DNA from: Candidatus Dadabacteria bacterium
Lineage (GTDB): Bacteria > Desulfobacterota_D > UBA1144 > Nemesobacterales > CSP1-2
Direction of reading: 5' to 3'
Length of the DNA stretch: 64,000 nucleotides
NCBI GenBank assembly: GCA_963805855.1
Contig: CAWDVW010000002.1
Coordinates: 32,001 to 96,000 of the forward strand
Every line of letters starts with the position of its first letter. The first letter of the stretch is position 1. The notes beneath the pieces are model-generated. The model saw nothing but the letters and a program-made list of their open reading frames with translations, ran no database searches and had not been told where the DNA came from. Shown piece by piece: positions 20,681-49,456 of the stretch. The translations under genes and the position numbers were made by a program.

Positions 20681-20760
20681 CGCGATCACCCATCGGTAGT
20701 TATGCAGAAAGCTAATTGGAGTATTGACAACCTAAATAACTCCAAGAACTTTTCTTTATT

Positions 20761-26557: not shown

Positions 26558-26588
26558 AATATATCACCAATAGTTCTCATAAAAAATT

Positions 26589-27101: not shown

Positions 27102-27292
27102 CCCATCTCTCGTTGTAATGAAAATTCAAGTCCCCCATCTCATATAATAAAACAGATTTATAAGTATAACCCACAATACAAATATTTTTCTGTCAGATAT
27201 TCACTGATTCTGTTGTAGGTGTTTGCCCTATAACCCTATGGGATTAAAGCGAAAAAAGTGTTGGCGGAGATTAATTTACTTAAATACCAGGT

Positions 27293-27931
27293 TCAATCTA
27301 CAAGACCGTTTTTCATGCAGTAACGTATAATTTCCGCGTTCGATTGTAGATTCATTTTTTGCAGAATGCGTGCCCGGTATGTGCTTATGGTTTTAACACT
27401 CAGATACATGTTTTCAGCTATTCCCTTTAAGGTCTTCCCAGAAGCAATCAAACACAAAACCTGGTACTCACGGCGGGACAATTGATGATGGAGAGGCTTT
27501 TCAGTATCTGCTTCTAATTCTAAATTAATTGCCAATTTCTCAGCTAATGATGAACTGACGTATTTACCTCCAGCAAGCACTTTTCTTACTGCTTTTGCCA
27601 ACTCCTTAGGAACACTATCTTTTGTTACATAGCCAGCTCCTCCTAACTTCAGAGCACGCACAGCAAATTGATCTTCAGGATGCATACTCAAAATAAGCAC
27701 AGGAAGATTTGGACGTAGATGCTTCACTTCTCTTAGTACATTCAGACCGTTATCGCCTGGCAGGGTAATATCCAATATCAAAACATCCCAATTCTCTTCC
27801 CTTAGACATTTGAGTGTCTCTTCGGCATCTTTAGCTTCGCCAAAACTCTCAAAATCCGGCTCCCCTGCCAGAATTTGTTTTACCCCTTCCCGAACGACGG
27901 CGTGATCATCTGTAATTAGCACTTTTGCCAT
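27293..27931 (-). CDS. Canonical NarL/UvrY-family response regulator
   Basis: ITDDH, VLILD and GYVTKD motifs; HTH LSVKTISTYR. Overlaps its cognate kinase. Confidence 0.9.
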   Translation of the reverse strand: MAKVLITDDHAVVREGVKQILAGEPDFESFGEAKDAEETLKCLREENWDVLILDITLPGDNGLNVLREVKHLRPNLPVLILSMHPEDQFAVRALKLGGAGYVTKDSVPKELAKAVRKVLAGGKYVSSSLAEKLAINLELEADTEKPLHHQLSRREYQVLCLIASGKTLKGIAENMYLSVKTISTYRARILQKMNLQSNAEIIRYCMKNGLVD

Positions 27932-29897
27932 GACTTTTACCCATACTCTTTAGAGGTACCTTTACTGTAATTGTTGTACCTTTTTTTGGTACACCATTGA
28001 TTTTGAGCTCTCCTCTCAACAAAAGTGCTCGTTCTCTCATTCCTATCAACCCAATAGATTTAGGATCTGAAATCTTACTGTTTCTAATTCCTTTTCCATT
28101 ATCCCTAATTTCGAGAATCAGATGTCTCGCATTCTTCCTCAATTTTGTGCTTACCCTGGTTGCATCTGCATGTCGAGCCACATTTGTCAAGCTTTCCTGA
28201 AATACACGAAAGATCGCTGTTGACTTATCTTCATCCAATTCGACATGATCGACATTTGAGCGAATATCACAATTTATTCCGGTTCGCGTATTGAATTCCT
28301 GGGCTTGCCATTCCATCGCTTCGATAAGACCAAGGCCGTCCAATATCCCTGGTCTTAATTCTGTGGCAATCTGTCGTACCTTACGAATAGAGCCATCTAC
28401 CAGTTCGGATATACATTTTGTCTTATCCGAAACGCGTTGCTGTACCTTAAGAGTTTCAGAAGATAATATTCTTTCTATTAGAGACAGCTCCATTTTTAAT
28501 GCCGTCAATTCCTGACCCAGCTCATCGTGAACTCCACGCGCAATTCTGGTTCTTTCCTCCTCCCGCACGGACTGCAAATGGCCGGCAAGTGCTCGCAGTT
28601 GTTCACGAGAATTTCTTATTTCTTTTTCTGCTCGCTTGCGCTCGGCGATTTCTTTTACTAGTAGCGCATTCGCCTTTGCGAGGTCGGCGGTCCTTTCCTC
28701 AACACGCTGTTCCAGGTCGTCGTGCGCTTTTTTCAACGCCTCCGCGTGCATTGCGTAGGTTATGGATGTCTCGATTTGCTGGGCTAGTTTTACAAGCAGC
28801 TTAATCTCTTCCTTATCGAAGACTCTTTTTTTATAAGAATTAACACCTAAGACCCCGATAATCTTACCATCATTTCTCATGGGCATAGTCACATAGCTCT
28901 TGATTCCTAATTCTCTTCCGGCTTGACCGATGATTTTATCTTTATCGGTATCAGGCACGTGCATGAGCTCGCCATCTAAAATAGTTTTCCAAATAAATCC
29001 CTTGGGATAAGGAATTTTTCCTATCCGCTTAATGAACCAAGCGGGCAAGCCTCTATGAGCCTTTAGAACTGCTTCCCTACCCTCTACAAGGAAAACTCCG
29101 GCATTGTGTACTTCATCCATGTTTTCAATCATTGCATCAAGAGCGTTATCAATGACTTGTTGGAAATTGATTGACTGATTGACGCTCTTTGCCACAGCGG
29201 AAATGATTTTTTCATAACTATTCTTTCTTGAAACGTCTTTATACAACTTCGCTTTTGCAACCGCTGTTCCAATTTGATTACCTATTGAAGAAAGTAAATC
29301 TATTTGTTGCTTATTATATTTATGTTCGTTATAACTAGCGAACCAAATGACTCCCATAACCTTTTTTTCCAGAATGATCGGTATCGCCAAAGCGCTCTGA
29401 TGTCCAAGTTTCTTTCCTGCGTGACCTATATCTTTATCCTTTTGAATGTTATCAATATTGACTACTTCCCCTAATTTAATTACTTTCCAAGTGACTCCAG
29501 CGGGATTGGGTATTTCCCCAGCTCTACGGATGTAATCGTCACTAAGGTTTCTATGTGCTTGGAGGACTGCTGTATTTCTATCAACATCTATCAAATAAAT
29601 CATAGCAATGTCTACGTACTCTAATGCTGTGACCTCATCTAATGCGATTTTGTATACCTGTCGTAAGTCAAGTAGCTGATGGACGGCTTGAGAAATTCTA
29701 TTTAATATTTCTAAGTCCTTATTCCTACTGGTTAGATCAAGGTAGAAAGCTTTAAGCTTATCAGCGTGTTCCTGGGATTTCCCAAACAACATGGCGTCGT
29801 GGCAAAATGCCTTCAACGCTTCAAATCTTTGATTCGTATCTGCTAACTCGGTTACGAGTTGATCTTTTGTCTGAGAATCAATTTTCATGTTCACCAC
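27906..29897 (-). CDS. Cytoplasmic GAF-GAF HisKA_3 sensor kinase
   Basis: EERTRIARGVHDELGQ, QESLTNVARHA, DNGKG and GLIGMRER motifs; two GAF repeats. Confidence 0.9.
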   Translation of the reverse strand: MVNMKIDSQTKDQLVTELADTNQRFEALKAFCHDAMLFGKSQEHADKLKAFYLDLTSRNKDLEILNRISQAVHQLLDLRQVYKIALDEVTALEYVDIAMIYLIDVDRNTAVLQAHRNLSDDYIRRAGEIPNPAGVTWKVIKLGEVVNIDNIQKDKDIGHAGKKLGHQSALAIPIILEKKVMGVIWFASYNEHKYNKQQIDLLSSIGNQIGTAVAKAKLYKDVSRKNSYEKIISAVAKSVNQSINFQQVIDNALDAMIENMDEVHNAGVFLVEGREAVLKAHRGLPAWFIKRIGKIPYPKGFIWKTILDGELMHVPDTDKDKIIGQAGRELGIKSYVTMPMRNDGKIIGVLGVNSYKKRVFDKEEIKLLVKLAQQIETSITYAMHAEALKKAHDDLEQRVEERTADLAKANALLVKEIAERKRAEKEIRNSREQLRALAGHLQSVREEERTRIARGVHDELGQELTALKMELSLIERILSSETLKVQQRVSDKTKCISELVDGSIRKVRQIATELRPGILDGLGLIEAMEWQAQEFNTRTGINCDIRSNVDHVELDEDKSTAIFRVFQESLTNVARHADATRVSTKLRKNARHLILEIRDNGKGIRNSKISDPKSIGLIGMRERALLLRGELKINGVPKKGTTITVKVPLKSMGKSHGKSANYR

Positions 29898-31459: not shown

Positions 31460-34400
31460 ATGAAAGACTTGGAAAGTTTAAAACCTGACAAGTTCCCCGA
31501 CATTACTCACCAAAGGCAGCCTACAAGAATTAGGGAAAAACAAATATCAGATACTATGCAAATCGCTCCCCGCATTGAACCAGATGAACCCAAAACTATG
31601 ATAGGTATTTCAGAACATATTACAAGGCTAAAGAAGGCAGTGGAAAAGCTAACTCAAACTCAAGGTCGTCTAACAATATTGAACACCATAATTAAAACTA
31701 TTGGGTCAAACAAGTCAGTTAATCGAGTTGTCAAACTAACCGTTAATAAAACTAGTGAGTATTTCAAAGATCTTCGCGTATCTTATTCAACGATTGGTTA
31801 TAACGGCAAGATGAATCTGATTTATTCTAGAGAGACTCAAGGAATGTCAGTCTCGAACGGTTTAAAGTTAGACCTCTCAATGACACCAGAATATTTAGGC
31901 TTCTTACAGAGACGAGAACTAGTCATTATCGAAGATATTAATGGTGACCAGAGGTCAGCGCCCTACGGCAAAATATTTTCGGCATTTGGTAGCCGCGCAT
32001 TACTTGGCGCTCCGGTCGCAGATACCAATAAAACAATAGGTTTGCTATGTCTTCACTCCAGGAAAGCTCACAGATGGAGCAATCACGAAAAAAAAACCAT
32101 AAAAGACGTAGCCAAATACTTCGGTATTGCCATAAAAATTGCACGTGCAAAAATAACAAATAAAAAGAACGAAAAGAAAATTAAGAAAAACCTAAAGAAA
32201 TTATCCAAAACAACTAGATATGAAACTATTATAAAAACAATAACTCGCAGGGTCCATCAGTCGATAGATTTACGAAAAGTTCTCAATTATGCAGTTGCAG
32301 CAATGAATAAAACTATTGACGGGGCTGAAAGCGTTTCAATTTACCTTGTTGAGGGAAAAGAGGCTGTTTTGAAGGGCTACAGGGGCTATCCTAAATGGGC
32401 GGTTCAGCGTGTAAAGAGGATTCCATATCCCAGAGGATTTACGTGGAAGACAATCATCGAGGGAAAACCCATTTATGTTGATGATGTGGAAAAAGATCAT
32501 ACAATTGGTGCAATAGGAAGAGAAATAGGGACTAAGAGTTATGCATCAATGCCGATTACAGTTAATGGTAAGCCGATTGGTTCCATAAACATTAATTCTT
32601 ATCATAAAAATGCATTCAATGAAGGAGAGCTCCAGCTACTAAAACAGGTATCACGACAAATAGCAGTAGCGATAAAAAATGCCAGTCAGGCAAATAAGCT
32701 TGAAAAAGCAAAATCGGATTTAGAAAAAAGCATTTTAGAACGAACTGAAGACCTGATAAATATGAATAAAGAGTTGGAGAAAGAAATTACTGAGCGTACG
32801 GAAATTGAAAAACGACTGCTCATCACTCATCATGAATTGGAAAAGAGGAATCGATATGAGAAAATTGTTAGAGCTATTACTCAAAGCGTTCATCAATCCT
32901 TAGCCCTCCGAGAAGTGCTTCAAAATGCTGTAGAATCGATTTGTAGTCATATAGACGTGGTAGAACATATTTCAATATTTTTAGTTGATGGGAGTGAAGC
33001 AGTGATGAGGGCTCATAAGGGTCATCCTGATTGGTTTATTGATAGGGTAGCACGCATTCCCTATCCAAAGGGTTTTACGTGGAAAACTATCATTGAGGGA
33101 AAACCAATTTATTGTCCTGATGTTGAAAAAGATACTGTGATTGGCCCAGCTGGTAAGGAAGTCCGAACCAAGAGCTATGCTAGCATGCCATTGTATTGCG
33201 AAGGTAATGCAGTTGGTAGCATAAATGTACATTCCCTTTTTAAAGATGCGTTTGATAGAGAACACCTCAAATTACTTAATGATGTTGCTAAACAAATTGA
33301 GGTAGCAATAAAACATGCCAAGCAGGCGGAAGCAATCAAGGAAAGTAAAGAAAAGTATCTAAAGCTGATTGAGCAATCAAACGATTGGGTATGGGAATTT
33401 GACACAAATGGCTTTTTCACATATGTAAATCCAAAAGTGCGCGAAATAATTGGGTACGAACCAGAAGAATTAATAGGTAAAACAACATTTGATTTTATGT
33501 CTTCGGGGGAAGCAAAACGATTTTCTGATTTGGCAAACCCCTATTTTTCGGAGAAAAAACCATTTAAGCGTCTTGAAAAACAACTGATTCATAAGGATGG
33601 GCATCAAGTTACCCTGGAAGTTAGTGGAACACCTATTTTTGATAGTCAAGGAGATTTCAAAGGCTATTTGGGAGTAGTCCAGGATATTACCGAACGCAGA
33701 AATCAAGAGAAGACGATACACCATTTTGCTATGCATGATTATCTGACCGATCTTCCTAATCGCCGTCTACTTGAACAGGAATTAGCACGATTAACAAATC
33801 GAAATAACTCCAAACAAAATGATGCGTTGGTCATAATAGACTTGGACAACTTTAAAATAATAAACGATACGCTAGGTCATTTTGCTGGAGATCAGCTTTT
33901 GAAGGATCTGTCAAATGCTTTAGCAAGAATTATGCGCCCTAGAGATTTGCTGGCAAGAATGGGTGGTGATGAGTTTGCTATACTTCTCCAGAACGTTTCT
34001 CAGAAAGAGGCTAAGAAAATTGTTGGTAGGTTATTTAAGTCAATAAACAAGTTTGAATTCAATATCAAAGGTTATAATTTGAATCTTAACTGCAGTATGG
34101 GCATTGCCCTCATCGACGGCGAATCAAGCATAGAAGAAATTTTGCAAAATGCTTATTCGGCTCTTTACCAAGCCAAGACCGAGGGGAAAAACCAGATAAT
34201 CCATCATATTACAAGCAAAAACATCATCAAGATTAAGCAGGCTAGCAATTGGAATATCCGCATCAAAGAAGCACTCAAATTTGATCGATATACAATAGAA
34301 TTTCAACCGGTGGTACGGCTGGATACTGAGAATACGGAGTTTTTCGAGGCATTGATCAGGATGAAAGCCAAAAATGGTGAAATTGTATTTCCAAAAGCGT

Positions 34401-34972
34401 TTATTCATGCTGCTGAACGCTATGGCTTAATATCAGAAATTGACCGGTGGATGTTGGAGAAAATAACGCATTTTTTAGGTAACCATCCGAGTACGAATCT
34501 TTCCATAAACCTTTCAGGATCGAGCTTAAGAGATAAGTCGCTTCTTTCATTAATCGAAAGATATATCAAGGAAGGTCGAATATCTGCCGATCAATTAATT
34601 TTCGAAATCACCGAACTCTCCGCTATTAGAGATTTAAATAGCGTCCAAAAATGGATGAATAAATTGCAGATCTTAAATGCCAGATTTGCCCTGGATGACT
34701 TTGGTACTGGCTTCTCATCATTCAAGCACTTGCAGATCCTTCCAGTTGATTTTGTCAAAATAGACGTTTCCTTTATCTCTAAAATCAAAGAAGATCTGTC
34801 ATGCTATGCGATTGTAAACAGTATCGCAGCTGTAGCACATGCTCTTGGTAAAGAAGTTATCGCCGAGGGGGTAGAAAATCAAGAAATTATTAAAAGCCTC
34901 CGGGAGCTTAAAATTGAATTTGGGCAAGGGAAATTCTGGAAGTCAGCGAATCTGGGTTCTCTAACATCATAA
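31460..34972 (+). CDS. GAF-GAF-GAF-PAS-GGDEF-EAL diguanylate cyclase/phosphodiesterase
   Basis: DYLTDLPNR, RPRD I-site, GGDEF, FEALIR, DDFGTG and IAEGVE motifs. Confidence 0.92.
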   Translation: MKDLESLKPDKFPDITHQRQPTRIREKQISDTMQIAPRIEPDEPKTMIGISEHITRLKKAVEKLTQTQGRLTILNTIIKTIGSNKSVNRVVKLTVNKTSEYFKDLRVSYSTIGYNGKMNLIYSRETQGMSVSNGLKLDLSMTPEYLGFLQRRELVIIEDINGDQRSAPYGKIFSAFGSRALLGAPVADTNKTIGLLCLHSRKAHRWSNHEKKTIKDVAKYFGIAIKIARAKITNKKNEKKIKKNLKKLSKTTRYETIIKTITRRVHQSIDLRKVLNYAVAAMNKTIDGAESVSIYLVEGKEAVLKGYRGYPKWAVQRVKRIPYPRGFTWKTIIEGKPIYVDDVEKDHTIGAIGREIGTKSYASMPITVNGKPIGSININSYHKNAFNEGELQLLKQVSRQIAVAIKNASQANKLEKAKSDLEKSILERTEDLINMNKELEKEITERTEIEKRLLITHHELEKRNRYEKIVRAITQSVHQSLALREVLQNAVESICSHIDVVEHISIFLVDGSEAVMRAHKGHPDWFIDRVARIPYPKGFTWKTIIEGKPIYCPDVEKDTVIGPAGKEVRTKSYASMPLYCEGNAVGSINVHSLFKDAFDREHLKLLNDVAKQIEVAIKHAKQAEAIKESKEKYLKLIEQSNDWVWEFDTNGFFTYVNPKVREIIGYEPEELIGKTTFDFMSSGEAKRFSDLANPYFSEKKPFKRLEKQLIHKDGHQVTLEVSGTPIFDSQGDFKGYLGVVQDITERRNQEKTIHHFAMHDYLTDLPNRRLLEQELARLTNRNNSKQNDALVIIDLDNFKIINDTLGHFAGDQLLKDLSNALARIMRPRDLLARMGGDEFAILLQNVSQKEAKKIVGRLFKSINKFEFNIKGYNLNLNCSMGIALIDGESSIEEILQNAYSALYQAKTEGKNQIIHHITSKNIIKIKQASNWNIRIKEALKFDRYTIEFQPVVRLDTENTEFFEALIRMKAKNGEIVFPKAFIHAAERYGLISEIDRWMLEKITHFLGNHPSTNLSINLSGSSLRDKSLLSLIERYIKEGRISADQLIFEITELSAIRDLNSVQKWMNKLQILNARFALDDFGTGFSSFKHLQILPVDFVKIDVSFISKIKEDLSCYAIVNSIAAVAHALGKEVIAEGVENQEIIKSLRELKIEFGQGKFWKSANLGSLTS

Positions 34973-37076: not shown

Positions 37077-39579
37077 TATCCCTTCCTGAAATCTCCTGAA
37101 TAATGGGCAGTTCTATTATGAAGTTCGTTCCCTTTTCGGTATCACTGTAAATTACAATGTTCCCATTGTGAGCTTCAATTATTTTATAGCTCACTGAGAG
37201 ACCAAGCCCGGACCCAGTGTTTTTTGTGGTAAAGAAGGGGTCAAAAATCTTGGGGAGGTCTTCTTTTTTGATACCAGGCCCATTATCCGCGAAACTTATA
37301 AATACTTTATTTGAGCTTTCTTTTTGAAATCCTGTATTAATCCTGAGTTCACCGCCACCGGGCATCGCTTGAATAGAATTCATTATCACATTAATGAATA
37401 CATGCCATATGTTATTTAGATCAGCCATGATTTTGGGAACCCCGTAATCCAGATTTTTAATGACTTCGATCTTATTATCAACAATCTGTTTTCTGGTTAA
37501 GGTCAAAACTTCATTGATTAAGCTGTTAACATCAACAAGTTCAAAATTCGTCGATCCAGGCTTTGAAAACTTAAGCAAGGCATCTATCAACCTGTTTGTG
37601 CGATCAACCTCGTGCTTAATGTAATCAAGGTATTGTCCAATTAGCGGAGATTTTTCCCGGGTCAAATTTTGTGATAAATAATACCTTGCACCTTCTATGA
37701 TGTTTAAAGGGTTTCGTATTTCATGCGCAATTCCTGCCGCAAGTTGTCCTACAGCAGACATCTTCTCCGCCTGGAGAAGCTGCGCTTGTGTCTCTTGAAG
37801 CTCTCTATTTTTTTCTTCTAACTTGTTTACATAATCCTCGACCAATTTAAAAGCAAATGCGTTTTCAATAGCAATGGCAGTCTGGTTTGCCAGTGTCTTC
37901 AGTAGCTTTAAATCATAGCTTGTATACATCAGTCCGGATTTCTTTTCTCCCAATGAAAGAACACCTACCAGCTCGTCCTTGAAAAAAAGGGGGATAATTA
38001 GTGAAGCCCTCAAAACAGAGAAGGTTTTCTTCAATTCTTCGCCATACATATAATATTTTGGCTCCGCAATCAAATCCTCTTTAAACACTTCTTTTTTCGA
38101 GCTATTTAATAAGAAAACTAACTTGTTATCGCTCTCGATGCTTAAGCCATTTTTCTCCAAATCATCAATCGTAGTAGAATGAATCTTGTAGCCATTTGTG
38201 CTTCGATCGAAAAGTAGAAGGGAGGCTGAGTTGATGAACATGGTTTCTGTAATAGTTTTAATAACTTTATTGGCTATTTCGTCAATATTGAGAATTGACG
38301 TCATGGCGTCGCTAAGATCAGAGATTGTTTTATTGTAGTCATACCTTTTTCTAAAGAAAGCAGTATCTAAAATGCTCTGGATTCGATTTCTGAGTGGATT
38401 AAGTGCTAACACAAGAAAAGCACTTAAGATCAGAAAGAAAGCGGGATTTTTCCAACCGCCATGTTTGGCAAAAGCAATATTGAAACCAAGAACCATAAGA
38501 GCAAAAATTCCTAACACCAATCCCGTCAGGGAGCCATAGACTAGTGTCTTTTGAATGATAACATCTATATCGAAGAGTTTATGCTTTGCGATAGCATAGC
38601 CTATTGAAAGAGGGAAAAATAAGACGAGTATTGCTATGTAGTTAATATTACTAGCTCCATAAAAAACCACTATCAAAGCGGCTAGAGCAGGCAGAAAATA
38701 ACCTAATACTGCACCTATCAACACCACTTGCGCCCTCTGTTTATTCAACTCAGAATCCGGTTTTAAATAACTTACAGTTACAGAAGCCAGCATTGTCAAC
38801 GCCGCGAAAATCAAATAAAACCACATGACTGTATCTACCCTTATCCACATAGTAGGGTTATTAAGATAGATCAGTTGTAAAATGAATAATAAAGATGAAA
38901 ATAAAAAAGGAAGCAATATTATACGCGGATACTTTTTAAATAATTTCTTCTCATTAGGAAAAACTAAGGATAGATAAATCAAAAAAGAAGGGCTAAAAAT
39001 CTGAGCCAGATAGGACATATTCACTGAATATATGAGCGAATAGTTGGTTTGATAATCAAAGTCTTCTATAAACCAAATCCCGATTGAAGAACAAAGCATC
39101 AAGAAGACCTTACTGGAAAGTAAATTCGGTTTTAAAAGATAAACTAAAGCTCCTATTGTAAGAAAAATTAAGCCAGTAACAAATTCTATCCCAAATACTT
39201 GCAAATAATCGCTAATTGTAAACTTCATGGAAGGAAACGTGGCTTCGATGAAATTATTATCTCTTGAAATTAGATAAGTTATTGGGGTACCTATCGGCTT
39301 CTCAGCGACGATATCATAGACCCCATACGAGCTTGATACTTCCCTTCCATCCACCTTTATAATTTGATCGTAAGATTCCAATCCGGATTTTCCACGCTGC
39401 GACCAACTGGGAAGGGTAACCTGACTAACCAATAAGTTATTATAAAGTAAAAAACCGGGGAAAGGCTTCCCAATCGATCTGAATCCCTGAATTAGGCTAT
39501 TGACACTAAGAGCAAGGGATAAACCAATTATTATATACGCTATAACCCTAAATTTATCTCTATAAAAAAAATAACTCAT
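37045..39579 (-). CDS. Membrane sensor kinase: PDZ-like loop, multi-TM, GAF, HisKA, HATPase
   Basis: SGLESYDQIIKVDG (PDZ-like), about 9-10 hydrophobic helices, LANQTAIAIEN (GAF), GIAHEIRNPL and FDPFFTTK. Confidence 0.88.
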   Translation of the reverse strand: MSYFFYRDKFRVIAYIIIGLSLALSVNSLIQGFRSIGKPFPGFLLYNNLLVSQVTLPSWSQRGKSGLESYDQIIKVDGREVSSSYGVYDIVAEKPIGTPITYLISRDNNFIEATFPSMKFTISDYLQVFGIEFVTGLIFLTIGALVYLLKPNLLSSKVFLMLCSSIGIWFIEDFDYQTNYSLIYSVNMSYLAQIFSPSFLIYLSLVFPNEKKLFKKYPRIILLPFLFSSLLFILQLIYLNNPTMWIRVDTVMWFYLIFAALTMLASVTVSYLKPDSELNKQRAQVVLIGAVLGYFLPALAALIVVFYGASNINYIAILVLFFPLSIGYAIAKHKLFDIDVIIQKTLVYGSLTGLVLGIFALMVLGFNIAFAKHGGWKNPAFFLILSAFLVLALNPLRNRIQSILDTAFFRKRYDYNKTISDLSDAMTSILNIDEIANKVIKTITETMFINSASLLLFDRSTNGYKIHSTTIDDLEKNGLSIESDNKLVFLLNSSKKEVFKEDLIAEPKYYMYGEELKKTFSVLRASLIIPLFFKDELVGVLSLGEKKSGLMYTSYDLKLLKTLANQTAIAIENAFAFKLVEDYVNKLEEKNRELQETQAQLLQAEKMSAVGQLAAGIAHEIRNPLNIIEGARYYLSQNLTREKSPLIGQYLDYIKHEVDRTNRLIDALLKFSKPGSTNFELVDVNSLINEVLTLTRKQIVDNKIEVIKNLDYGVPKIMADLNNIWHVFINVIMNSIQAMPGGGELRINTGFQKESSNKVFISFADNGPGIKKEDLPKIFDPFFTTKNTGSGLGLSVSYKIIEAHNGNIVIYSDTEKGTNFIIELPIIQEISGRDSEGEKKTFSG

Positions 39580-39597
39580 TTTAATTCAAAAAGAGCA

Positions 39598-39675
39598 TTA
39601 ATCCCCCTTTTCTACCAGTTTGCCTGCTGGATATTCATCTACAAAGCCGGTTCCCCCAGTTAACATTGCTTTCAT
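39598..39675 (-). pseudogene. 25-codon remnant of an NAD-dependent epimerase/SDR N-terminus
   Basis: Manual translation MKAMLTGGTGFVDEYPAGKLVEKGD* resembles the MKxLVTGGTGFVG...LVEKG start of extended SDRs. Confidence 0.5.
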
Positions 39676-39913
39676 TTCTGCATCGTTTAAGACTTTGCGC
39701 TAGGACTTACATCCTGAAAATTCACATCCTTTCTTTTCAGAAGATCAAACTCTCCTTTAGCTTATTTAAAACCTCTAGTATCATATCTAAACTATATTTA
39801 GCATAGCAAAGATAGGGAAATAGCGAAAATTCCACCAGCCACATGCAGAAACATCTTAAGAAATTCAATTAGTATCATCGCCTTAGCTTTCTCATTAATT
39901 ATTATGCTTTCTA

Positions 39914-39998
39914 CTTCGGCGACCCGATTAACATCGATTATTTGATCCCTGAGGTGTTAGGCATTGGTCCCCATCCTTTCGAGTAACTCACCGTTTCG
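39914..39998 (-). promoter_or_regulatory. Divergent GEMM-I (c-di-GMP-I / cGAMP) riboswitch-like element
   Basis: RNA CGAAACGGUGAGUUACUC-GAAA-GGAUGGGGAC-CAAUGCC...GAUGUUAAUCGGGUCGCCGAAG follows the GEMM-I order (GGyAAAC..GAAA..GGGACGCAAAGCC..AUGRYAGCCGGGUUGCCGAA), with several deviations. Confidence 0.5.
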
Positions 39999-40179
39999 GT
40001 GGTACGAAATGTACCTCAAAAACTATTGTTTAACGACTAAATAATAATCCAATTTTCGTGACATGAAGAACCCCCGTAGCAAGCTGCAGGGAATTCGCTA
40101 GTTAAATAAGATAAGCTCAATAAATTCATTAATAACGCTAACATAATTCATCAAGAAGACCGGGCAAGAATGTTTTCAT

Positions 40180-41820
40180 TCAGGCAGCAGATGATGGACG
40201 GGGAAAATGACAATGATCCGAATCTAGAATATTGAATTCTTTTCCAACTTTTTCTAAAACCTCTAGAGTCTTATCCAAATCTTGTTTAGTATGGGTCGCC
40301 ATAACGCTTAATCTGAAACGTTCTTCTCCCTTTGGCACAGCAGGATAAGGAACGGCGCTCAGATAAATCCCTTCCTCATATATCCTTTTACTCATTTTTC
40401 TGAGCGTCAAACCATCTCCAATAATGATTGGAATTATAGCCGATTCAGTGTTTCCAACATTAAAGCGCAGGGATAGAAGATTTTCTTTCAAATATTTTAT
40501 ATTTCTCCATAAGTTATCATGAATTTCTGTCTCACTCTCCATAACTTCAATAGCTGCTAGTGCCGCTGCTGCTACAGCGGGTGGCAGGTTTATGGAGAAA
40601 AACCCTGATCTTGCATAGTACCTCAAGTAATTTACAACTTCACTTGAAGAAGCAACAAAGCCACCTACGGCACCTAAAGCCTTACTCAAGGTGCCCATAA
40701 CTATATCTGCTTTACCCTCTATTTTAAAATGACTGGGTGTACCTTTACCCCTTTCTCCTATGACCCCGGTTGCATGAGCCTCGTCGACCATGACTTTTGC
40801 ACCGTAGCGGTGAGCGACTTCAATTATTTGGTCAAGAGGCGCGATATCACCGTCCATGCTATATACACCATCAACTACTACTAATCTACCGTTATATTTC
40901 TTCTCTGTTCTTTCCAACACATGCTTCAGACTATTGATATCGGAATGTTGAAAAGTTCCAAAAAGACCGCCGCTAAGCATACAACCATCTATAATGCTTG
41001 CATGTGCAAGCCTGTCTATAATTACCGCATCTCCTTTCTTTACCAAAGCAGGTATGCACCCTACGTTAGTTGCATATCCTGTGGGGAAGACTGCCGCATC
41101 CTCACAGCCTTTCATCCGGGCTAATTCAATTTCCAGTTCTCTATGCACATCGTATGTCCCTGAAAGAAGTGCTGCACCCTCTGAGCCAGTTCCGTATACC
41201 CTGGTCGATTCTAAAGCAGCTTTTACTACTTTTGGATGCGTTGAAAGACCCAGATAGTTGCAACTCCCCATCATGATCATTTCTCTCACTTCACCAAAGT
41301 TTTTATCAAAAACCTCAACTCTATTTTTACAAGCTGTTATGAGAGGTATTCTGTATTTATTAAAGCCCTTCTGGATAATATCTTCAAGAAATTCGCCGAA
41401 TGGTTTCGTCTTGTAAAATAAGTCTTTGTCTGAATTATCGACAAAATCTGCCAACGAGAAGTTATCAGAATTTATTTTTGTAGAACATTCCACTGTGGAT
41501 TCCTCTAACCTCCTCCTATCTGCTTCGAACATACTCTTAAATTCAACTCCCATCCCGGAATGGTCTCCTAATCTCAATTTCGCGGCATCCTTAATCCATC
41601 TAATCTCGCAATATGCGATTAGGGCTGTAATGTCTTTGGGAAACCTAAATTCAAGGAGTATTTTTGTTCCAGGCTGTAGTAGTTTTTTGGATTCAACAAA
41701 CATTCCATAGGGAGAAATATCCCTTACATGTCCACTTAATTGGCCATCGGCTCTTGACGCAACTTTAATGTCCGAAAAAGTGGTCCTTGTGCACCTTCTG
41801 CGTTCTAAGCTCAATGTCAT
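40180..41820 (-). CDS. PilZ domain fused to PLP-dependent alpha-oxoamine synthase (BioF/Kbl/SPT family)
   Basis: PilZ motifs RRCTR (RxxxR), DISPYG (DxSxxG) and GMGVEF. AOS motifs SCNYLGL, HASIIDG, DGVYSMDGD, DEAHA and GTLSKA (PLP Lys). Confidence 0.88.
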   Translation of the reverse strand: MTLSLERRRCTRTTFSDIKVASRADGQLSGHVRDISPYGMFVESKKLLQPGTKILLEFRFPKDITALIAYCEIRWIKDAAKLRLGDHSGMGVEFKSMFEADRRRLEESTVECSTKINSDNFSLADFVDNSDKDLFYKTKPFGEFLEDIIQKGFNKYRIPLITACKNRVEVFDKNFGEVREMIMMGSCNYLGLSTHPKVVKAALESTRVYGTGSEGAALLSGTYDVHRELEIELARMKGCEDAAVFPTGYATNVGCIPALVKKGDAVIIDRLAHASIIDGCMLSGGLFGTFQHSDINSLKHVLERTEKKYNGRLVVVDGVYSMDGDIAPLDQIIEVAHRYGAKVMVDEAHATGVIGERGKGTPSHFKIEGKADIVMGTLSKALGAVGGFVASSSEVVNYLRYYARSGFFSINLPPAVAAAALAAIEVMESETEIHDNLWRNIKYLKENLLSLRFNVGNTESAIIPIIIGDGLTLRKMSKRIYEEGIYLSAVPYPAVPKGEERFRLSVMATHTKQDLDKTLEVLEKVGKEFNILDSDHCHFPRPSSAA

Positions 41821-42113
41821 TTTAGATATCCCCTCTCACTCTATGTATTCTCAAACATTATAAGAGCGGTTGTTGAAAGCTATTACTCCCCTCTCCGAGA
41901 AGTCCAAATAATTTCGTCCGCTACACCTTCCTGCAACCGTCTATCATAGAAGACAAAGATTCTATATCAAAAATCTTAGAAAATTGCTTCAATTATAACT
42001 TTCTTTTAACTATCAGGAAAGTAATAATTGAAGCTTGTAGGGATATTAAACAAATAATGAAAATCACATTTTCTATAATAACGACAAAAAGTTACATTTT
42101 ACCCAATATCAGA

Positions 42114-43982
42114 CTAAAGTTGCTCTTCGTGGAACCATGCTCTTTGCCTTAGGCTACTGGAGCCGGTCCATGTCTTAATAATTGAATCCAATGTAAACAC
42201 AAATCTACCTTGAATAGCAAATGGAGCTTTTGGAGGATCGGCCGCTCCTATTGATGGAACTACCCCTTCAATAAACGCTCTTTGACTTTGAAGATCATCT
42301 AGACCATCACCCGCTATCACGACGCTACCTATTAGATCAAACCAGAGGTGATCCAATATCTTCCAGGTAAGAGTACCCTCTAACTCGGTGCCCAGAAATC
42401 TATTGACTTTGGGCAAGGGTGTTACAGGATCGAGACTTAAAGCATCTCTTTCATCCACCCATGCGAATAGGGCTTGAGGCGTAAAATAAAGGGGATCAAG
42501 TAATTTCACCGTGGTCCAAGCCCTGACATAGCCCGAGTTTATTACACTGCCCTCGACCGCATATATATTCGGTATCATATGTTTAAATAAGAGGTTATCG
42601 ACTGTATAAGCGTTATTGAAGAAAATTGCACTTCCTTCTAATCTATCAGGGGTTTTTGCATCATCACCACTAGCCCAACCAAATTCAGCAACAACCAGAT
42701 CTATAAAGCTGGGGGCTGGATCATAACCGACCCTGGCGGCAAGAAGAAAATTTTCAGGCGATATATCGATCTCGTTACTGCCTAAGACGAGGGGTAAGGG
42801 TTCTTCCAGGTTATTTACTTTTCCAAAAAGGTCCTGGAATTCGAAAGAAGCAAAAAAGCGATCAAACTTATACTTAGTATATAATGACCAATTTACAGTG
42901 TTATCGAGGTCTCCGGTAAGCCCGCTACTAACATCAAATCCGTTTTGATTTACAAGAAATATGTACCCCCCAAGCTCCAGGCTCTCACCCTGATATAAAG
43001 AAGCGAGCCCGACCTCCCATCCTTTTCCGTCCGCTCCATTAGCTATTGTTTTCCCCTGGCTGAGTCTGTCCAGTACGACGGAAAAAAGTAGATTTTCCCA
43101 GCGCTTATCCAGCAGAGCAAAAGGCGTAGTGTCAAACTCAAATCTATCCACGATACTCCCAAAATCCTGATCAGGCATGCTCCCTGCATTGTTTAAGATT
43201 CCGAGCCCCCAGTCAAAAGGCTGTCTCCCCACCCATAGTTCGCCAATTTTTATCCCCCCGATAGGAATCCCGGCCACCATGTAAAGCGACCTGACATCGA
43301 CCAAATCTATATCTGTATTTACCGGCGAAAGTGTCTCTCCCGTGAACGTATCTGTCACCTCCCTAAGAATTGAACCGCGAAACGAATCTCCCGGGCTCGG
43401 GGCTTCAAAAAATTTTCCTGACACGCTATCATCGCCCAAACCACCCCAAATTATATTTTTTGCAATATCGAACTGACTACGAAGCGACAGATTATCGGTT
43501 ATTTCGATCATGGGAGAAAGAAGCAATCTTGAATCGACAAAAAAAATGTCATCGTCTTGACCGGGAACTGCGCCCGCAAATGTAGCATCTTTAAACACAA
43601 ACCCTCTCGTTCGATAATAGCTCGGAAAATCGGTGTTAAATTTTATTCTTCTCAACAATGGACTCAGGTAATCTAACTTTCTTTTCACAATATCTTCGAC
43701 TTTTTTCTCATCAACTCCCTTTTCGGTTTCCAGATCTTTAATCTTTTCTTTGTCGGCTTCTCTACTGGCTTCGAGTTCCTCAATCTTTCTACGAAGCTCT
43801 TCGATCTGCGCCTGACTCCGTTTCTGTATTTCTTCGATCATCTTCTGATTCTGCTTCTGAATTTCTTCCACCTGCTCTCTAAGAGCATCGATTTCCTCTT
43901 TCGGAGTTTGTGCCTCTGAGCTTCGGTCACATATCGTGATTATTAACAATAAACTGACGGCTAATATTAAAATTACCTTCAT
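42114..43982 (-). CDS. Outer-membrane beta-barrel/porin-like protein with N-terminal coiled coil
   Basis: Signal peptide MKVILILAV at 43982, E/Q/K-rich coiled coil and amphipathic strands. GRQPFDWGLGILNNAG resembles TIGR04551-like barrels. Confidence 0.7.
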   Translation of the reverse strand: MKVILILAVSLLLIITICDRSSEAQTPKEEIDALREQVEEIQKQNQKMIEEIQKRSQAQIEELRRKIEELEASREADKEKIKDLETEKGVDEKKVEDIVKRKLDYLSPLLRRIKFNTDFPSYYRTRGFVFKDATFAGAVPGQDDDIFFVDSRLLLSPMIEITDNLSLRSQFDIAKNIIWGGLGDDSVSGKFFEAPSPGDSFRGSILREVTDTFTGETLSPVNTDIDLVDVRSLYMVAGIPIGGIKIGELWVGRQPFDWGLGILNNAGSMPDQDFGSIVDRFEFDTTPFALLDKRWENLLFSVVLDRLSQGKTIANGADGKGWEVGLASLYQGESLELGGYIFLVNQNGFDVSSGLTGDLDNTVNWSLYTKYKFDRFFASFEFQDLFGKVNNLEEPLPLVLGSNEIDISPENFLLAARVGYDPAPSFIDLVVAEFGWASGDDAKTPDRLEGSAIFFNNAYTVDNLLFKHMIPNIYAVEGSVINSGYVRAWTTVKLLDPLYFTPQALFAWVDERDALSLDPVTPLPKVNRFLGTELEGTLTWKILDHLWFDLIGSVVIAGDGLDDLQSQRAFIEGVVPSIGAADPPKAPFAIQGRFVFTLDSIIKTWTGSSSLRQRAWFHEEQL

Positions 43983-44371
43983 GTCTAAATGTTCTAATCT
44001 CTTAAAAATATAAGCCACTATAATATATTTATTGTATGATTTCAAGCAATACTTTGGTTTCAGTTTTGAATCAATATAGATGCACAACAAATTTTTGTTT
44101 AAGTGCAAAGAGCATGATGCTTTGAGAAACCTCCAGGGTTTTGGCCTTGTGTTAATCATATTTGTGTTGATAAATTATATAATTCATGGAAGCACAGGTT
44201 AGAAACGCGCTAGATTACAAAATCGATAATGATTTTAACATTGATTCCTGCGCTCCCATTGTTACAGCAACCCTATAGTCTTAAATGCCGGCAAAGCGAG
44301 TTTTTATAAATCGGGTTTCTTTCCCGTCAGAATCTTAGTTGATCCTTAATGCCCAGGGAAAAGAGTTTAAT

Positions 44372-45484
44372 TTATGAATTGGTAAGGTTGAATAAAAGAT
44401 TTTTCAGATAATTCGAGCCAGCTCGTTCAATATTAGTTCGAGCCTTTGTCCATACCTCATTGGGGATACTAATAAAAATTTCGATTATCTCTGGATCAAA
44501 CTGCCTACCGGAAGATTGCTTTATCAAATCTATCGCCTCTTCGTAAGAAATTGCTTGGCGATAAGAACGGCTGGTAGTCATAGCATCAAATGTATCAACA
44601 ACTGAAAATATCCTAGCACCTAATGGAATTTCCTTCCCGGATATTTTGTGGGGATAACCGGTTCCATCAAAATTTTCGTGATGACTCAATACTATTTCAG
44701 CCGCTTGCTCCAAGAACTTGAACTTTTTCAAAAGATTATACCCGTCAATAGGGTGTTTCCTCATTATTTCAATTTCCTCGTCCGTAAGCTTTTCGGGCTT
44801 CAATAGAACATGGTCTGGAACTCCTATTTTCCCAATATCATGGAGAAGAGCCCCCTTCGCTATACTCCCCAAATCCGAATTCGGTACGCCAAAATTCTCA
44901 GCAAGGATTATCGTATATTCAGTCACTCGATATGAATGGCGACCCGTTTCACATTCCCTCATATCGAGAGCCGAGATCATTGCTTCAAGTGTGTCTGCAT
45001 AAAGACTGATCAATTGATTTGCCTGTGTTGTCACCCTTCTCTCAAGATTTTCCTGATAATCCTTGATATCACTAATCAATCTCGATCTCTCAACCGCACG
45101 ATTTATTACCGACTTTACACTACTATTATTAAAAGGCTTGACAATATAATCATATGCCCCTTCCTTAAGTGCCAACCTTGCGTATTCGAATTCTTTCGAT
45201 GCAGTTACAATTATTATCGAGATATCGGGATAGAGTTTTTTAAGACTCCTCAGTGTCTCAATTCCACTCAGTTTTGGCATATGGATGTCCAAAAGAACTA
45301 CCTCGTAAAAGTGTCCATCTCTGAACTTTTCTAGACACTCGATTCCATCCGAGACACTTTCACTTGCAAAACCCTCCTCGGCTGCAATTTCCTTCAGCAA
45401 ATCTGCCAGGACCTTTTCATCATCAACGATAAGTATTTTCTCTCTATTCTTATGTCTTTCGTTTGTATGATTTATTTGATACAT
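44372..45484 (-). CDS. REC + HD-GYP c-di-GMP phosphodiesterase (RpfG-like)
   Basis: IVDDE, LLDIHMP, HSYRV, LLHDIGK and HHENFDGTGYP motifs. Confidence 0.92.
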   Translation of the reverse strand: MYQINHTNERHKNREKILIVDDEKVLADLLKEIAAEEGFASESVSDGIECLEKFRDGHFYEVVLLDIHMPKLSGIETLRSLKKLYPDISIIIVTASKEFEYARLALKEGAYDYIVKPFNNSSVKSVINRAVERSRLISDIKDYQENLERRVTTQANQLISLYADTLEAMISALDMRECETGRHSYRVTEYTIILAENFGVPNSDLGSIAKGALLHDIGKIGVPDHVLLKPEKLTDEEIEIMRKHPIDGYNLLKKFKFLEQAAEIVLSHHENFDGTGYPHKISGKEIPLGARIFSVVDTFDAMTTSRSYRQAISYEEAIDLIKQSSGRQFDPEIIEIFISIPNEVWTKARTNIERAGSNYLKNLLFNLTNS

Positions 45485-45688: not shown

Positions 45689-46597
45689 TCAACTCTTCTT
45701 TTCGAAAAAACTAATTTGATTTTTCCCCTTTCTTTTTGCATTGTATAGAGCCTCATCAGCCCGAGCTATGATTTCATCCATGGACTGTTCAGTTGCCATT
45801 AATGTGGCTCCAGCAGAAGCTGTAATGTTCACGACAACTTCTTCATCTAGTGTGATAGGCAAGGAAGACAATCCCATCTGTAACCGGGTGATAATTTCTT
45901 GAGCGGTATCCGCGGTTGTTTGCGGTATGCAGATAAGAAATTCATCGCCCCCATATCGACAAATAGAATCATATTTTCTGAGGTTGCGGGTAAGGTACTT
46001 CGCCGCCTCTTTCAATACTTTATCACCCGACAAATGACCGTATGTATCATTAACATCCTTCAGATTATCCAGGTCAATTAACGCAACTACGCACGGCTCT
46101 CCTTTTCTTAATGCTCTCGCATGTTCCCTTGAAAGGGTTTGGAAAAACGGTTGACGAGTAGGAACGCCAGTCAGAAAATCAATCTTAGACATATTTTCAT
46201 GGAGCTTATCTTTTAACTTGAGGAGTAACGTAGTCAATTCTTGTTCCTTTTCACTTAAGACATCGTAATCTTCTTTTGTGATAGTATCATCGAGTTTTGA
46301 TTTTAACGCCAGGACTCTGGCAATATCATGCATTTCTTGATGGGCCTTATTCACCAAGAGAAAATCTTCATCGTTTCCAAAGTATGTAGAAGTTTCGTCA
46401 CGATGCCATATGCCAAAACCGCACTTGAGATAGCCATCTTTCAATAGATACAAATCGCTTATCGGTAATCCGCATAAAAGACTACGGTGCCAATCCTTAA
46501 GGCATTTGCTGTGTTCCGCAAGCCCGTGCTCGATTGATCGAATATGAGATCGCGCTGCATCTTCATTCAACTGATTATCAGAGAGTTGCGGGATCAT
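45689..46597 (-). CDS. CZB-GGDEF diguanylate cyclase (DgcZ-like, zinc-binding)
   Basis: CZB ligand pattern EH..., KCGFGIW and HQEMH; RKYD I-site; RYGGDEF. Confidence 0.85.
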   Translation of the reverse strand: MIPQLSDNQLNEDAARSHIRSIEHGLAEHSKCLKDWHRSLLCGLPISDLYLLKDGYLKCGFGIWHRDETSTYFGNDEDFLLVNKAHQEMHDIARVLALKSKLDDTITKEDYDVLSEKEQELTTLLLKLKDKLHENMSKIDFLTGVPTRQPFFQTLSREHARALRKGEPCVVALIDLDNLKDVNDTYGHLSGDKVLKEAAKYLTRNLRKYDSICRYGGDEFLICIPQTTADTAQEIITRLQMGLSSLPITLDEEVVVNITASAGATLMATEQSMDEIIARADEALYNAKRKGKNQISFFEKKS

Positions 46598-47941: not shown

Positions 47942-49000
47942 ATGAACTATGTCGGAGTAGATCTGCACAAAAAAACATCGTTATTCTACGTAGTAGATTC
48001 CAGGTGCAGGAAACTTGATAGTAGAAATGTAACAAATACTGAAGAGGAATTAAAGGGTTACTTTGAACAGATACCTAAACCGTATATACTCGCAGTAGAA
48101 TCCACCTACAATTGGTATTTCTTCGTAGATTTAGCCGAGCGATACGCCGAGCAGGTATATTTGGCCGACACATACGAGCTTAAGGCATTTGCTAAGAGAC
48201 ATAAGAAGACAGATAAGATAGATGCCAGGCTTATAGCTACAGTATTACAAAAAGGGTTTTCACCAGCTGTAACTATCCCAGATAAACAAACTCGAGAGAT
48301 TAGGGAATTACTCCGTTACAGGATAAAACTTGTACGGGATCGTACCCGCAATATCTCTCGACTCAAATCTTTATTGGACAGGTTAGGGTATCAAAGCACA
48401 GGAGACTTTACTACATATAAACATCTAAAGGCGATTGATACAAAAGACTTACCTGCCATCTACGCCTATATTATAAGAAGGCAATGTGAGCAAATTATTG
48501 AGTTAAACAAAAGGGTAGCAGAGATAGAAGAGCACTTTAATGCTATAGCCGAGGGGGATGAAGACATGCGGAATTTACTCACGATTAAAGGGATCGGGGC
48601 TTTTTCAGCTGCGTTAATAAAGACAGAAATAATAGACATATCCCGTTTCAGGACATTTAATCGACTGTGTGCATATGCGGGGTTGGCGCCGAGAGTGAGT
48701 GCAAGTGGAGGAAGGGTTTATCATGGGCCTTTAAACAAAAATCGTAGAAAGAATCTGCAGTGGATATTATTGGAAAATGTTCTTCATTTTATTAGAGCAT
48801 TACCTAAGTCTAAAGAGAAGTTTGATAGGATAGAAAGGCGCAAGGGATACAATACAGCCAGGGTAGCATTGGCAAGAGATATGTTGAAGATCATTTATCA
48901 TGTTTTGAAAGAAAGGAGGGCGTTTTATCACAGACCAGCAATAGATAAGAGTAAAAGTGGTAGAATTAGAATCCAGTCGGTGGCGGCTACTGCACTCTAA
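47942..49000 (+). CDS. IS110-family DEDD transposase/recombinase
   Basis: YVGVDLHKK, AVEST, KKTDKIDA, TIKGIG and YAGLAPRVSASGG motifs. Confidence 0.95.
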   Translation: MNYVGVDLHKKTSLFYVVDSRCRKLDSRNVTNTEEELKGYFEQIPKPYILAVESTYNWYFFVDLAERYAEQVYLADTYELKAFAKRHKKTDKIDARLIATVLQKGFSPAVTIPDKQTREIRELLRYRIKLVRDRTRNISRLKSLLDRLGYQSTGDFTTYKHLKAIDTKDLPAIYAYIIRRQCEQIIELNKRVAEIEEHFNAIAEGDEDMRNLLTIKGIGAFSAALIKTEIIDISRFRTFNRLCAYAGLAPRVSASGGRVYHGPLNKNRRKNLQWILLENVLHFIRALPKSKEKFDRIERRKGYNTARVALARDMLKIIYHVLKERRAFYHRPAIDKSKSGRIRIQSVAATAL

Positions 49001-49269: not shown

Positions 49270-49346
49270 TGGCGCGCCCGGAGGGAGTCGAACCCCCGAC
49301 CTTCGGATTCGTAGTCCGGCGCTCTATCCATCTGAGCTACGGGCGC
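49270..49346 (-). tRNA. tRNA-Arg(ACG)
   Basis: GCGCCCGTAGCTCAG...CT-ACG-AA...GTTCGACTCC...GCGCCA. Confidence 0.95.
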
Positions 49347-49364
49347 ACAGGGTTATTAGAATAT

Positions 49365-49456
49365 TGGCGGAGAGGGTGGGATTCGAACCCACGAGGGAGT
49401 TTTACCCCCCTACTCGCTTAGCAGGCGAGTGCCTTCGGCCACTCGGCCACCTCTCC
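49365..49456 (-). tRNA. tRNA-Ser(GCT)
   Basis: GGAGAGGTGGCCGAG...CT-GCT-AA, long variable arm, CCA end. Confidence 0.95.

Follow-up and report, generated by a model that had tools for sequence, protein, structure and literature searches.

A conserved PilZ-alpha-oxoamine synthase fusion from a sister group of serine palmitoyltransferase: a candidate cyclic di-GMP-gated aminoketone synthase linked to a pair of kinases

The gene P0001 lies in a 64,000-nucleotide stretch of contig CAWDVW010000002.1 from a Candidatus Dadabacteria bacterium (hereafter the window) and encodes a PilZ domain fused in frame to an alpha-oxoamine synthase (AOS) dependent on pyridoxal phosphate (PLP). Profile scores, phylogenetic trees and a changed loop together place the AOS half, on sequence comparison, in an uncharacterised sister group of serine palmitoyltransferase (SPT), apart from the recognised SPTs and from BioF, Kbl and CqsA enzymes; the fusion is conserved among its relatives, and a membrane kinase and a hybrid kinase accompany it. 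We hypothesize, giving the idea about an even chance, that P0001 is a cyclic di-GMP (c-di-GMP)-gated, SPT-like synthase of long-chain aminoketones (sphingoid type) that works within a two-kinase regulatory module.

An earlier sequence-only reading of this stretch had described an intact PilZ domain joined in frame to a complete AOS, and the description holds: the open reading frame (ORF) is uninterrupted, both Pfam domains are recognised (Table 1), and the residues that define each half are present. PilZ domains carry the signature RxxxR plus (D/N)xSxxG; P0001 has both motifs, and its PilZ match reaches 45.9 bits against a Pfam cut-off of 22.5. In the AOS half, the PLP-binding lysine and the His/Asp/His/Arg set that mark the family are accounted for by H273, D346, H349, K380 and R503, which align with H133, D204, H207, K236 and R361 of Escherichia coli BioF; the first four are invariant in all 128 rows of the AOS alignment, and the last is arginine in 127 of them. 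An AlphaFold2 model built on 42 relatives (mean pLDDT 86.1) shows a six-stranded N-terminal barrel and a helix followed by the AOS fold. The predicted strands (residues 13-22, 28-36, 39-43, 53-58, 67-77 and 89-97, then a helix at 99-113; pLDDT 69-89 by block) correspond to the six-stranded beta-barrel of PilZ domains, and in the aligned fusion proteins the domain is followed by a conserved linker, NSDN..LADF..DLF.KTKP. A complex prediction of the PilZ part (residues 1-115) with the AOS part (130-546) and two c-di-GMP molecules scored 0.00 against a mark of 0.32, which is evidence neither way.

The fusion is conserved, as the proposal made from the sequence had required: in precomputed Pfam annotations, PF07238 occurs together with PF00155 in 67 of the best 120 protein clusters, down to 45% identity. 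Those with named sources come from metagenome-assembled genomes (MAGs) of Thermodesulfobacteriota or "Deltaproteobacteria", and automatic annotation calls the proteins glycine C-acetyltransferase, 8-amino-7-oxononanoate synthase or class I/II aminotransferase. Among 73 stored relatives with an N-terminal extension (P0001 counted in), both PilZ motifs are kept under a strict pattern in 59, R8 with R12 in 66, G39 in 71 and S36 in 62; R8, R12 and G39 are invariant in 22 fusion proteins, and these three and S36 are among the best-conserved positions of the domain. Selection on the motif positions that contact c-di-GMP is thereby supported at the level of alignment. A PilZ-only search of a representative library returned 133 generic PilZ matches and so did not help to gauge the size of the family. 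Enzymes gated by PilZ are well known, as are AOS enzymes; it is their combination, together with the clade and the kinase module, that is not described: a literature search for PilZ with SPT, BioF, aminotransferase or sphingolipid found no such fusion, subscription journals being mostly outside its reach, and the main text of a paper on Black Sea sphingolipids (PMC11334938) mentions neither PilZ nor fusions.

P0001 passes none of the curated NCBIfam equivalog cut-offs. Its scores, in bits against the cut-off of each model, are 393 against 535 for gly_Cac_T_rel, 384.2 against 426.45 for bioF (TIGR00858), 380.2 against 460 and 331.3 against 493 for Kbl (NF005394 and TIGR01822), 372.3 against 640, 343 against 500 and 282.7 against 670 for SPT (NF047600, NF047599 and NF047603, in that order; the 372 against 640 is for the CFB type), and 202.1 against 428 for the CqsA type (NF005526). 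The best solved relative is the SPT of Sphingobacterium multivorum (PDB 3A2B, 8GUH; 292 bits, TM score 0.96, 38% identity), with Thermus BioF/Kbl close to it (290-292 bits) and CqsA at 113 bits. For the trees, 76 of 80 AOS genes fetched from genomes were labelled by NCBIfam models, E. coli BioF and Kbl were added, and the LG+G4 model was used with a quick search on 128 rows and a careful one on 63. In the larger tree the PilZ fusions form a 30-row clade (SH-aLRT 99) within a 58-row unclassified clade, which joins, with support of 99, a 46-row SPT-like clade that includes nine Bacteroidota SPTs passing the NCBIfam cut-off; BioF and Kbl fall outside. The smaller tree recovers a PilZ core clade (100/99) within a 30-row clade (87/96) and a 17-row SPT-like clade (100/99) that holds the cut-off-passing Bacteroidota SPTs; the SPT-like clade, the PilZ/unfused clade and an Atribacterota pair are united at 98/99, with BioF and Kbl outside. 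In both trees P0001 is sister to the SPT-like clade and not inside the recognised SPT clade.

The usual GSR loop had been noted as changed to GSEGAALL in P0001. The change is confirmed, and the whole clade shares it with P0001: the loop arginine is found in 44 of 46 SPT-like, 15 of 17 BioF and all 4 Kbl rows, and in none of the 23 PilZ-fused and 35 unfused sister rows, which have proline, alanine or serine instead. The possibility that the enzyme is a plain BioF or Kbl is answered by its scores below the NCBIfam cut-offs and its place outside both groups in the trees; the absence of bio genes nearby is confirmed among the ORFs scanned in the 64-kb window, and no tdh gene was found beside P0001 or among the same ORFs. 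Two kinds of product had been proposed from the sequence. An autoinducer of the CqsA/LqsA kind loses support, with 202 bits against the cut-off of 428 and the solved CqsA at 113 bits against 292 for SPT, while an aminolipid or sphingoid base gains it, from the sister relation to SPT and from 27 relatives fused to an acyltransferase that is found beside SPT-like genes.

Those 27 relatives, out of the 73, are long forms of at least 900 residues with a C-terminal module of about 370 residues, and in the 63-row tree they are interleaved with the short forms, to which P0001 belongs. A GNAT-family Pfam domain (PF00583, in some with PF13508 or PF08445) is precomputed for 25 of the 27, the domains having been checked individually for P0042, P0010 and P0061; P0055 has no C-terminal domain listed. 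A look-up of the module in the ESM Atlas gave solely 'GNAT family' clusters of about 370 residues. A hidden Markov model (HMM) of the module, made from the last ~385 residues of 26 long forms, finds a full-length counterpart close to the AOS in 18 of 46 SPT-like loci (E 1e-27 to 1e-73); these ORFs have about 370-470 codons (most 369-386) and usually lie directly downstream of the AOS. The model also matches the unfused sister locus L014 and the fusion locus L001, in which the module is broken by frame changes, and matches none of 22 BioF, Kbl and Atribacteria loci. A Pfam scan of ten of the GNAT-positive SPT-like loci found the order AOS, GNAT, epimerase-family short-chain dehydrogenase/reductase (SDR), PAP2_3 in L042 and L028, an epimerase-family SDR just upstream on the opposite strand in L047, and a PAP2_3 gene beside the AOS-GNAT pair in L016. 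Passages of PMC11334938 state that the genes for Spt, bCerS and CerR often cluster and that this co-localisation was used to define "Spt-like" proteins; passages of PMC11087976 place Spt and bCerS in the cytoplasm, where bCerS acts after Spt, and CerR in the periplasm. Since GNAT homologs sit beside SPT-like genes, and in view of the gene clusters in these passages, the PilZ-AOS-GNAT chain can be read as uniting steps one and two of a ceramide-type pathway in a single protein, an identification drawn from gene order and from passages of the two papers. As an aside on the long forms, P0061 (933 residues) has a FemAB-like C-terminal region (PF04339) in place of GNAT and groups in the trees with unfused AOS proteins, outside the core fusion clade.

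Linkage to a kinase had been named beforehand as a point on which the proposal could fail, and it is conserved, in the gene order of a second locus and on 15 shared contigs. The membrane kinase consists of one transmembrane (TM) helix, a PDZ-like stretch, about 8-9 hydrophobic segments and then GAF, HisKA and HATPase domains (Pfam, hydropathy), with a weak likeness to PrsK (120 bits, cut-off 300); the start of the hybrid kinase gene overlaps the end of the membrane kinase gene upstream of it. L001, the sole PilZ-fusion locus among the best 80 related loci listed (most of the others have an unfused AOS), keeps the order of the window, namely fusion gene (56% identity), membrane kinase (51%) and hybrid kinase (58%); its membrane kinase ortholog is broken into a PDZ-like ORF and a GAF-HisKA ORF, its fusion gene is a long form, and a chorismate synthase gene stands upstream in the place that an outer-membrane barrel gene occupies in the window. 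A further search used the sensor part of the kinase (residues 1-600), which defines a tight family, and took a contig to be shared where the source and the longest contig in base pairs (bp) coincide exactly. By this measure 15 kinase clusters share a contig with fusion clusters, nine with long-form and six with short-form partners (7573, 8273, 13535, 13948, 16780, 17618, 18741, 19686, 27192, 33649, 38155, 57328, 71826, 94210 and 139407 bp), and no such match occurs for any of the 43 unfused AOS clusters that the list also contains. Where the shared contig is only 7.5-19 kb long, the two genes must lie no more than a few genes apart. In P0212-P0214 and P0218-P0220 the PDZ-polytopic-GAF sensor occurs at 28-34% identity with a PP2C/SpoIIE output (PF07228) replacing HisKA-HATPase, so that the same sensor is wired to partner-switching outputs as well.

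The barrel accompanies only part of the family. Its model (pLDDT 79.7) has a signal peptide, a long coiled coil and a beta-barrel; NCBIfam TIGR04551 gives 82.9 bits, below the cut-off of 300, and among solved folds the alginate exporter AlgE matches best (E 3e-17, TMt 0.61-0.64), with general porins behind it. As a modelled likeness this says that the protein is probably a channel, and does not point to a substrate. The family is small (94 proteins at E<=0.001) and has no Pfam domain except for one partial match. Seven barrel clusters share a contig with fusion clusters (5431, 12030, 18275, 27192, 51292, 94210 and 313010 bp); every partner is a short form, with no match for any of the 27 long forms.

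Table 1. P0001, its functional sites and the neighbouring genes, in positions of the window.
Feature	Position	Strand	Basis or remark
PilZ::AOS fusion gene P0001	40180..41820	-	Open ORF, 546 aa; Pfam PilZ + Aminotran_1_2
PilZ domain, residues 6-108	41497..41805	-	Pfam PF07238, E 7.8e-12
RxxxR motif, R8-R12	41785..41799	-	Translation, alignment
DxSxxG motif, D34-G39	41704..41721	-	Translation, alignment; reads D34-I-S-P-Y-G39
AOS (PLP) domain, residues 180-522	40255..41283	-	Pfam PF00155, E 8.6e-57, 193 bits
Codon of K380, predicted PLP-binding lysine	40681..40683	-	Aligns with E. coli BioF K236 and Kbl K244
Loop GSEGAALLSG, residues 212-221	41158..41187	-	Without the Arg kept in SPT, BioF and Kbl
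GGDEF protein, predicted diguanylate cyclase	45689..46597	-	Pfam GGDEF, E 1.4e-44
REC-HD-GYP regulator, predicted c-di-GMP phosphodiesterase	44372..45484	-	Pfam Response_reg + HD_5
Outer-membrane protein, 681-aa ORF	42114..44159; likely start Met60, giving 42114..43982	-	
Gap between AOS gene and kinase gene, 600 nt	39580..40179	-	No recognised RNA
25-codon ORF with TGGTGF Rossmann start	39598..39675	-	Extended-SDR vestige or chance
Polytopic sensor kinase, 844 aa	37045..39579	-	Pfam GAF, HisKA, HATPase; hydropathy
Hybrid kinase REC-PAS-HisKA-HATPase-REC, 632 aa	35178..37076	-	Pfam
GAF-PAS-GGDEF-EAL protein	31460..34972	+	Pfam; convergent with the kinase genes

The neighbourhood is in large part as the sequence-only reading had drawn it: Pfam finds the barrel, HD-GYP and diguanylate cyclase genes upstream of P0001 and the membrane and hybrid kinase genes downstream, on the same strand. 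The GEMM-like RNA placed downstream found no support. At the gathering score Rfam finds tRNAs only in the whole window, no c-di-GMP riboswitch (GEMM-I or GEMM-II) is matched in 39400-42300 even at E<=10, and the gap between the AOS and kinase genes folds no better than its shuffles (z = +0.62); a promoter-like site at 39809-39780 in the gap is a consensus match only. Of the SDR stub proposed for the same gap a part stands: a 25-codon ORF (39675..39601, stop 39600..39598) begins MKAMLTGGTGF and matches the first 21-25 residues of extended SDRs, but the rest of such an enzyme is absent from the gap. When five extended SDRs, one from beside the L001 fusion gene and four from SPT-like loci, were compared with the gap alone by tblastn, residues 1-25 only were aligned, at E 0.001-0.05.

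Elsewhere in the window, an IS110-family transposase gene (47942-49000) lies between the c-di-GMP cluster and a tRNA gene pair (49273-49456), and may mark a point of rearrangement at the cluster's upstream edge. A region of gene fragments at 18853-21459 holds a trehalose-synthase N-terminal fragment (18853-19365) and two ORFs with only the N-terminal domain of a UDP-glucose/GDP-mannose dehydrogenase (19681-20337 and 20761-21459), beside a full-length copy of that dehydrogenase gene at 15081-16451; such fragments point to gene decay or to frame errors, in line with an SDR vestige in the gap. The stretch 24470-29897, flanked by the polysaccharide genes and the c-di-GMP cluster, encodes three REC-LuxR (GerE) regulators, a NusG-like protein and a double-GAF HisKA_3 kinase. 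The C-terminus of P0001 (40180-40188) is Ala-Ala, an ending found in 23 of 45 short-form fusions (P0004-P0023 among the relatives; for example ...SSAA, ...SRKAA and ...STLAA), in none of the 27 long forms and in one of 43 unfused proteins. Such endings are reminiscent of ssrA-like ClpXP degrons, an analogy that hints at proteolytic control of the short-form fusions.

According to the hypothesis that we favour, P0001 would be a cytoplasmic enzyme of two domains, with the AOS at the C-terminus condensing an acyl-CoA or an acyl carrier protein thioester (acyl-ACP) with a small amino acid to yield a long-chain 3-keto-amine, which would be the committed step towards a sphingoid-type aminolipid of the envelope. 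In the long forms the fused ~370-residue GNAT N-acyltransferase would carry out the next step; the short form in the window has no GNAT. To judge from its motifs, the PilZ domain may bind c-di-GMP through RxxxR and DxSxxG and thereby set AOS activity post-translationally. Because the REC-HD-GYP and GGDEF genes sit just upstream of P0001 in the window, the simplest circuit would run from the kinases through these two proteins to the c-di-GMP level, and from there through the PilZ-AOS protein to the output of envelope lipid, in a direction that we infer. The module would comprise the PDZ-TM-GAF kinase and the REC-PAS-histidine kinase (HK)-REC hybrid kinase, and the AlgE-like barrel in the short-form subgroup. 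A direction from the kinases through REC-HD-GYP and c-di-GMP to PilZ fits equally well as a kinase that senses the product; such sensing is possible and compatible with a feedback loop, and both the distance from CqsA and the existence of long forms make it less likely. A fuller scheme, in which c-di-GMP would gate a committed sphingolipid-type step while the kinase pair reads the product or the state of the envelope and resets c-di-GMP through REC-HD-GYP, seems doubtful to us. If true, it would be a closed loop of second messenger and lipid synthesis in anaerobic Thermodesulfobacteriota-like bacteria, undescribed for bacterial lipids.

A number of observations weigh against the hypothesis of a c-di-GMP-gated, SPT-like synthase. 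Binding of c-di-GMP and allostery are read from the motifs of P0001; one motif is missing, under the strict pattern, in 14 of the 73 N-extended relatives, and five relatives with a long N-terminus (P0057, P0062, P0065, P0067 and P0072) have no Pfam PilZ match, so the PilZ domain can decay while the enzyme is retained. P0001 is below every SPT equivalog cut-off and lacks the loop arginine that SPT-like enzymes keep, and its amino-acid or acyl substrate may therefore differ from that of SPT. The identity of the GNAT module as bCerS-type is suggested by gene order and by passages of the two papers cited above. No homolog of the module was found in the 64-kb window by tblastn or with the HMM, so that for the bCerS/CerR linkage the 27 GNAT-fused relatives stand against a window gene with the SDR vestige only; no downstream lipid pathway is visible in the window, and no intact SDR gene lies beside P0001. 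HD-GYP, GGDEF and barrel genes are absent from the 14 ORFs scanned in L001, which leaves the linkage of the first two unproven beyond the window. For the kinases, contig matching shows co-occurrence and not adjacency, which is seen in the window and in L001 only. Finally, the neighbourhoods of the unfused sister clade are mixed and have no common theme among ten loci, with an SDR and a GGDEF protein in L004, a divergent GNAT in L014, a glycosyltransferase/AMP-ligase/MFS set in L007 and a REC protein with a PAS-HK in L002.

Three unfused loci or locus pairs are worth recording in their own right. In L004 (3581-6793, from a Clostridiales MAG) a classical SDR gene overlaps the stop codon of the sister AOS gene and a GGDEF protein gene follows, an association of AOS, reductase and c-di-GMP without PilZ. 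In L013 (9320-20933, Streptomyces alboflavus) a 645-residue AOS of the sister clade adjoins an 8-kb ORF with a second AOS-like region (218 bits), probably a natural-product cluster. The Bacteroidales loci L030 (4714-7216) and L072 (4018-6472) hold a long-branch AOS pair, each gene preceded by a TetR regulator and followed by an overlapping ORF of about 406 residues without a Pfam match, which looks like an uncharacterised two-gene unit.

Other explanations of the locus have to be set against the same evidence. The decay of the motifs would be natural if the PilZ domain served to dock or localise the protein, for instance at the membrane or the kinases, or had degenerated as a receptor, with the enzyme under some other control: the five proteins without a Pfam PilZ match have lost one or both motifs and keep the N-terminal domain, and among PilZ proteins those closest in sequence are small and generic. 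We nevertheless regard this as quite unlikely, as R8, R12, S36 and G39 rank with the best-conserved sites of the domain and genes of c-di-GMP turnover flank P0001 in the window. The profile scores leave room for an ordinary metabolic AOS (Kbl, BioF or the promiscuous Thermus type) with an incidental PilZ domain, making a small amino-ketoacid with no role in lipids or signalling. The source annotations name glycine C-acetyltransferase or 8-amino-7-oxononanoate synthase, the bioF, Kbl and gly_Cac_T_rel models (384, 380 and 393 bits) score equal to or slightly above SPT (372), and the Thermus enzyme nearly ties with SPT among solved structures (290-292 bits). An enzyme of this sort is nonetheless very unlikely: P0001 is under all the curated cut-offs and outside the BioF and Kbl groups in both trees, it lacks the loop arginine of BioF and Kbl, neither bio genes nor tdh occur among the window ORFs scanned, and biotin or threonine metabolism has no use for the GNAT fused in the relatives or for the conserved kinase linkage.

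The kinase linkage itself would suit a circuit of the CqsA/CqsS or LqsA/LqsS kind, in which a diffusible aminoketone or hydroxyketone made by the AOS is received by the polytopic kinase, with c-di-GMP gating its production. The adjacency of AOS and membrane kinase is conserved, the ~9-10 hydrophobic segments of the kinase offer a possible site for a hydrophobic ligand, the short form, with no acyltransferase fused to it, would release a free aminoketone, and an outer-membrane channel is linked to the short forms. Against these stand the distance from CqsA in profile and structure scores, the position of P0001 beside SPT-like enzymes in the trees, the 27 relatives that carry a sphingolipid-cluster acyltransferase, the nine long forms among the 15 kinase contig matches, and the kinase itself, which also has PDZ-like and GAF domains and whose sensor occurs with PP2C outputs as well; we consider such a circuit unlikely.

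Known targets of c-di-GMP are polysaccharide synthases, motility and transcription, and the regulation of bacterial sphingolipid synthesis is largely unknown; we know of no description of direct c-di-GMP control of a PLP-dependent lipid-forming enzyme. The fusion family offers a soluble, expressible protein in which regulation and chemistry could be tested in vitro, together with a conserved partner kinase pair, and the occurrence of PilZ-AOS with this pair in many uncultured bacteria suggests second-messenger control of a lipid or signal pathway. It also draws attention to a large uncharacterised AOS clade, sister to SPT and without the loop arginine, whose members now carry Kbl or BioF annotations; surveys of metagenomes that take Spt homologs as a sign of sphingolipid producers may consequently misjudge this clade.

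Bacterial SPT (S. multivorum and the Bacteroidota enzymes of NF047600) is the nearest known system: P0001 shares its fold and its His/Asp/His/Lys/Arg set, belongs to the sister clade, and has relatives joined to the type of acyltransferase that adjoins SPT-like genes, but SPT is without the N-terminal PilZ domain and the conserved linker, and its loop arginine is replaced in P0001. The Caulobacter ceramide pathway of Spt, bCerS and CerR, as described in passages of PMC11087976 and PMC11334938, follows the same logic of AOS, soluble acyltransferase and epimerase-family reductase that is seen in SPT-like loci; the long-form relatives appear to fuse its first two steps, whereas the window gene has no acyltransferase and only the 25-codon vestige of an SDR. 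CqsA/CqsS and LqsA/LqsS resemble the window in placing an AOS synthase gene beside that of a polytopic membrane histidine kinase, but theirs is a different AOS clade, and the window adds PilZ, a kinase with PDZ-like and GAF domains and a second, hybrid kinase. The PilZ-gated synthases BcsA (cellulose) and Alg44 (alginate) belong to membrane glycosyltransferase systems that make polysaccharide, with the PilZ domain C-terminal in BcsA. They share with the predicted P0001 a c-di-GMP receptor built into a biosynthetic machine, which in P0001 would be a soluble PLP enzyme, and the barrel linked to P0001 resembles AlgE of the alginate system in fold. In the Rpf/diffusible signal factor (DSF) system, RpfF is the synthase of a lipid-type signal, RpfC a hybrid kinase and RpfG a REC-HD-GYP protein that lowers c-di-GMP. 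Its synthase family is unrelated and the HD-GYP linkage is not seen in L001, but by analogy only it offers the same combination as the window, with a synthase, a hybrid kinase and a REC-HD-GYP protein in one neighbourhood.

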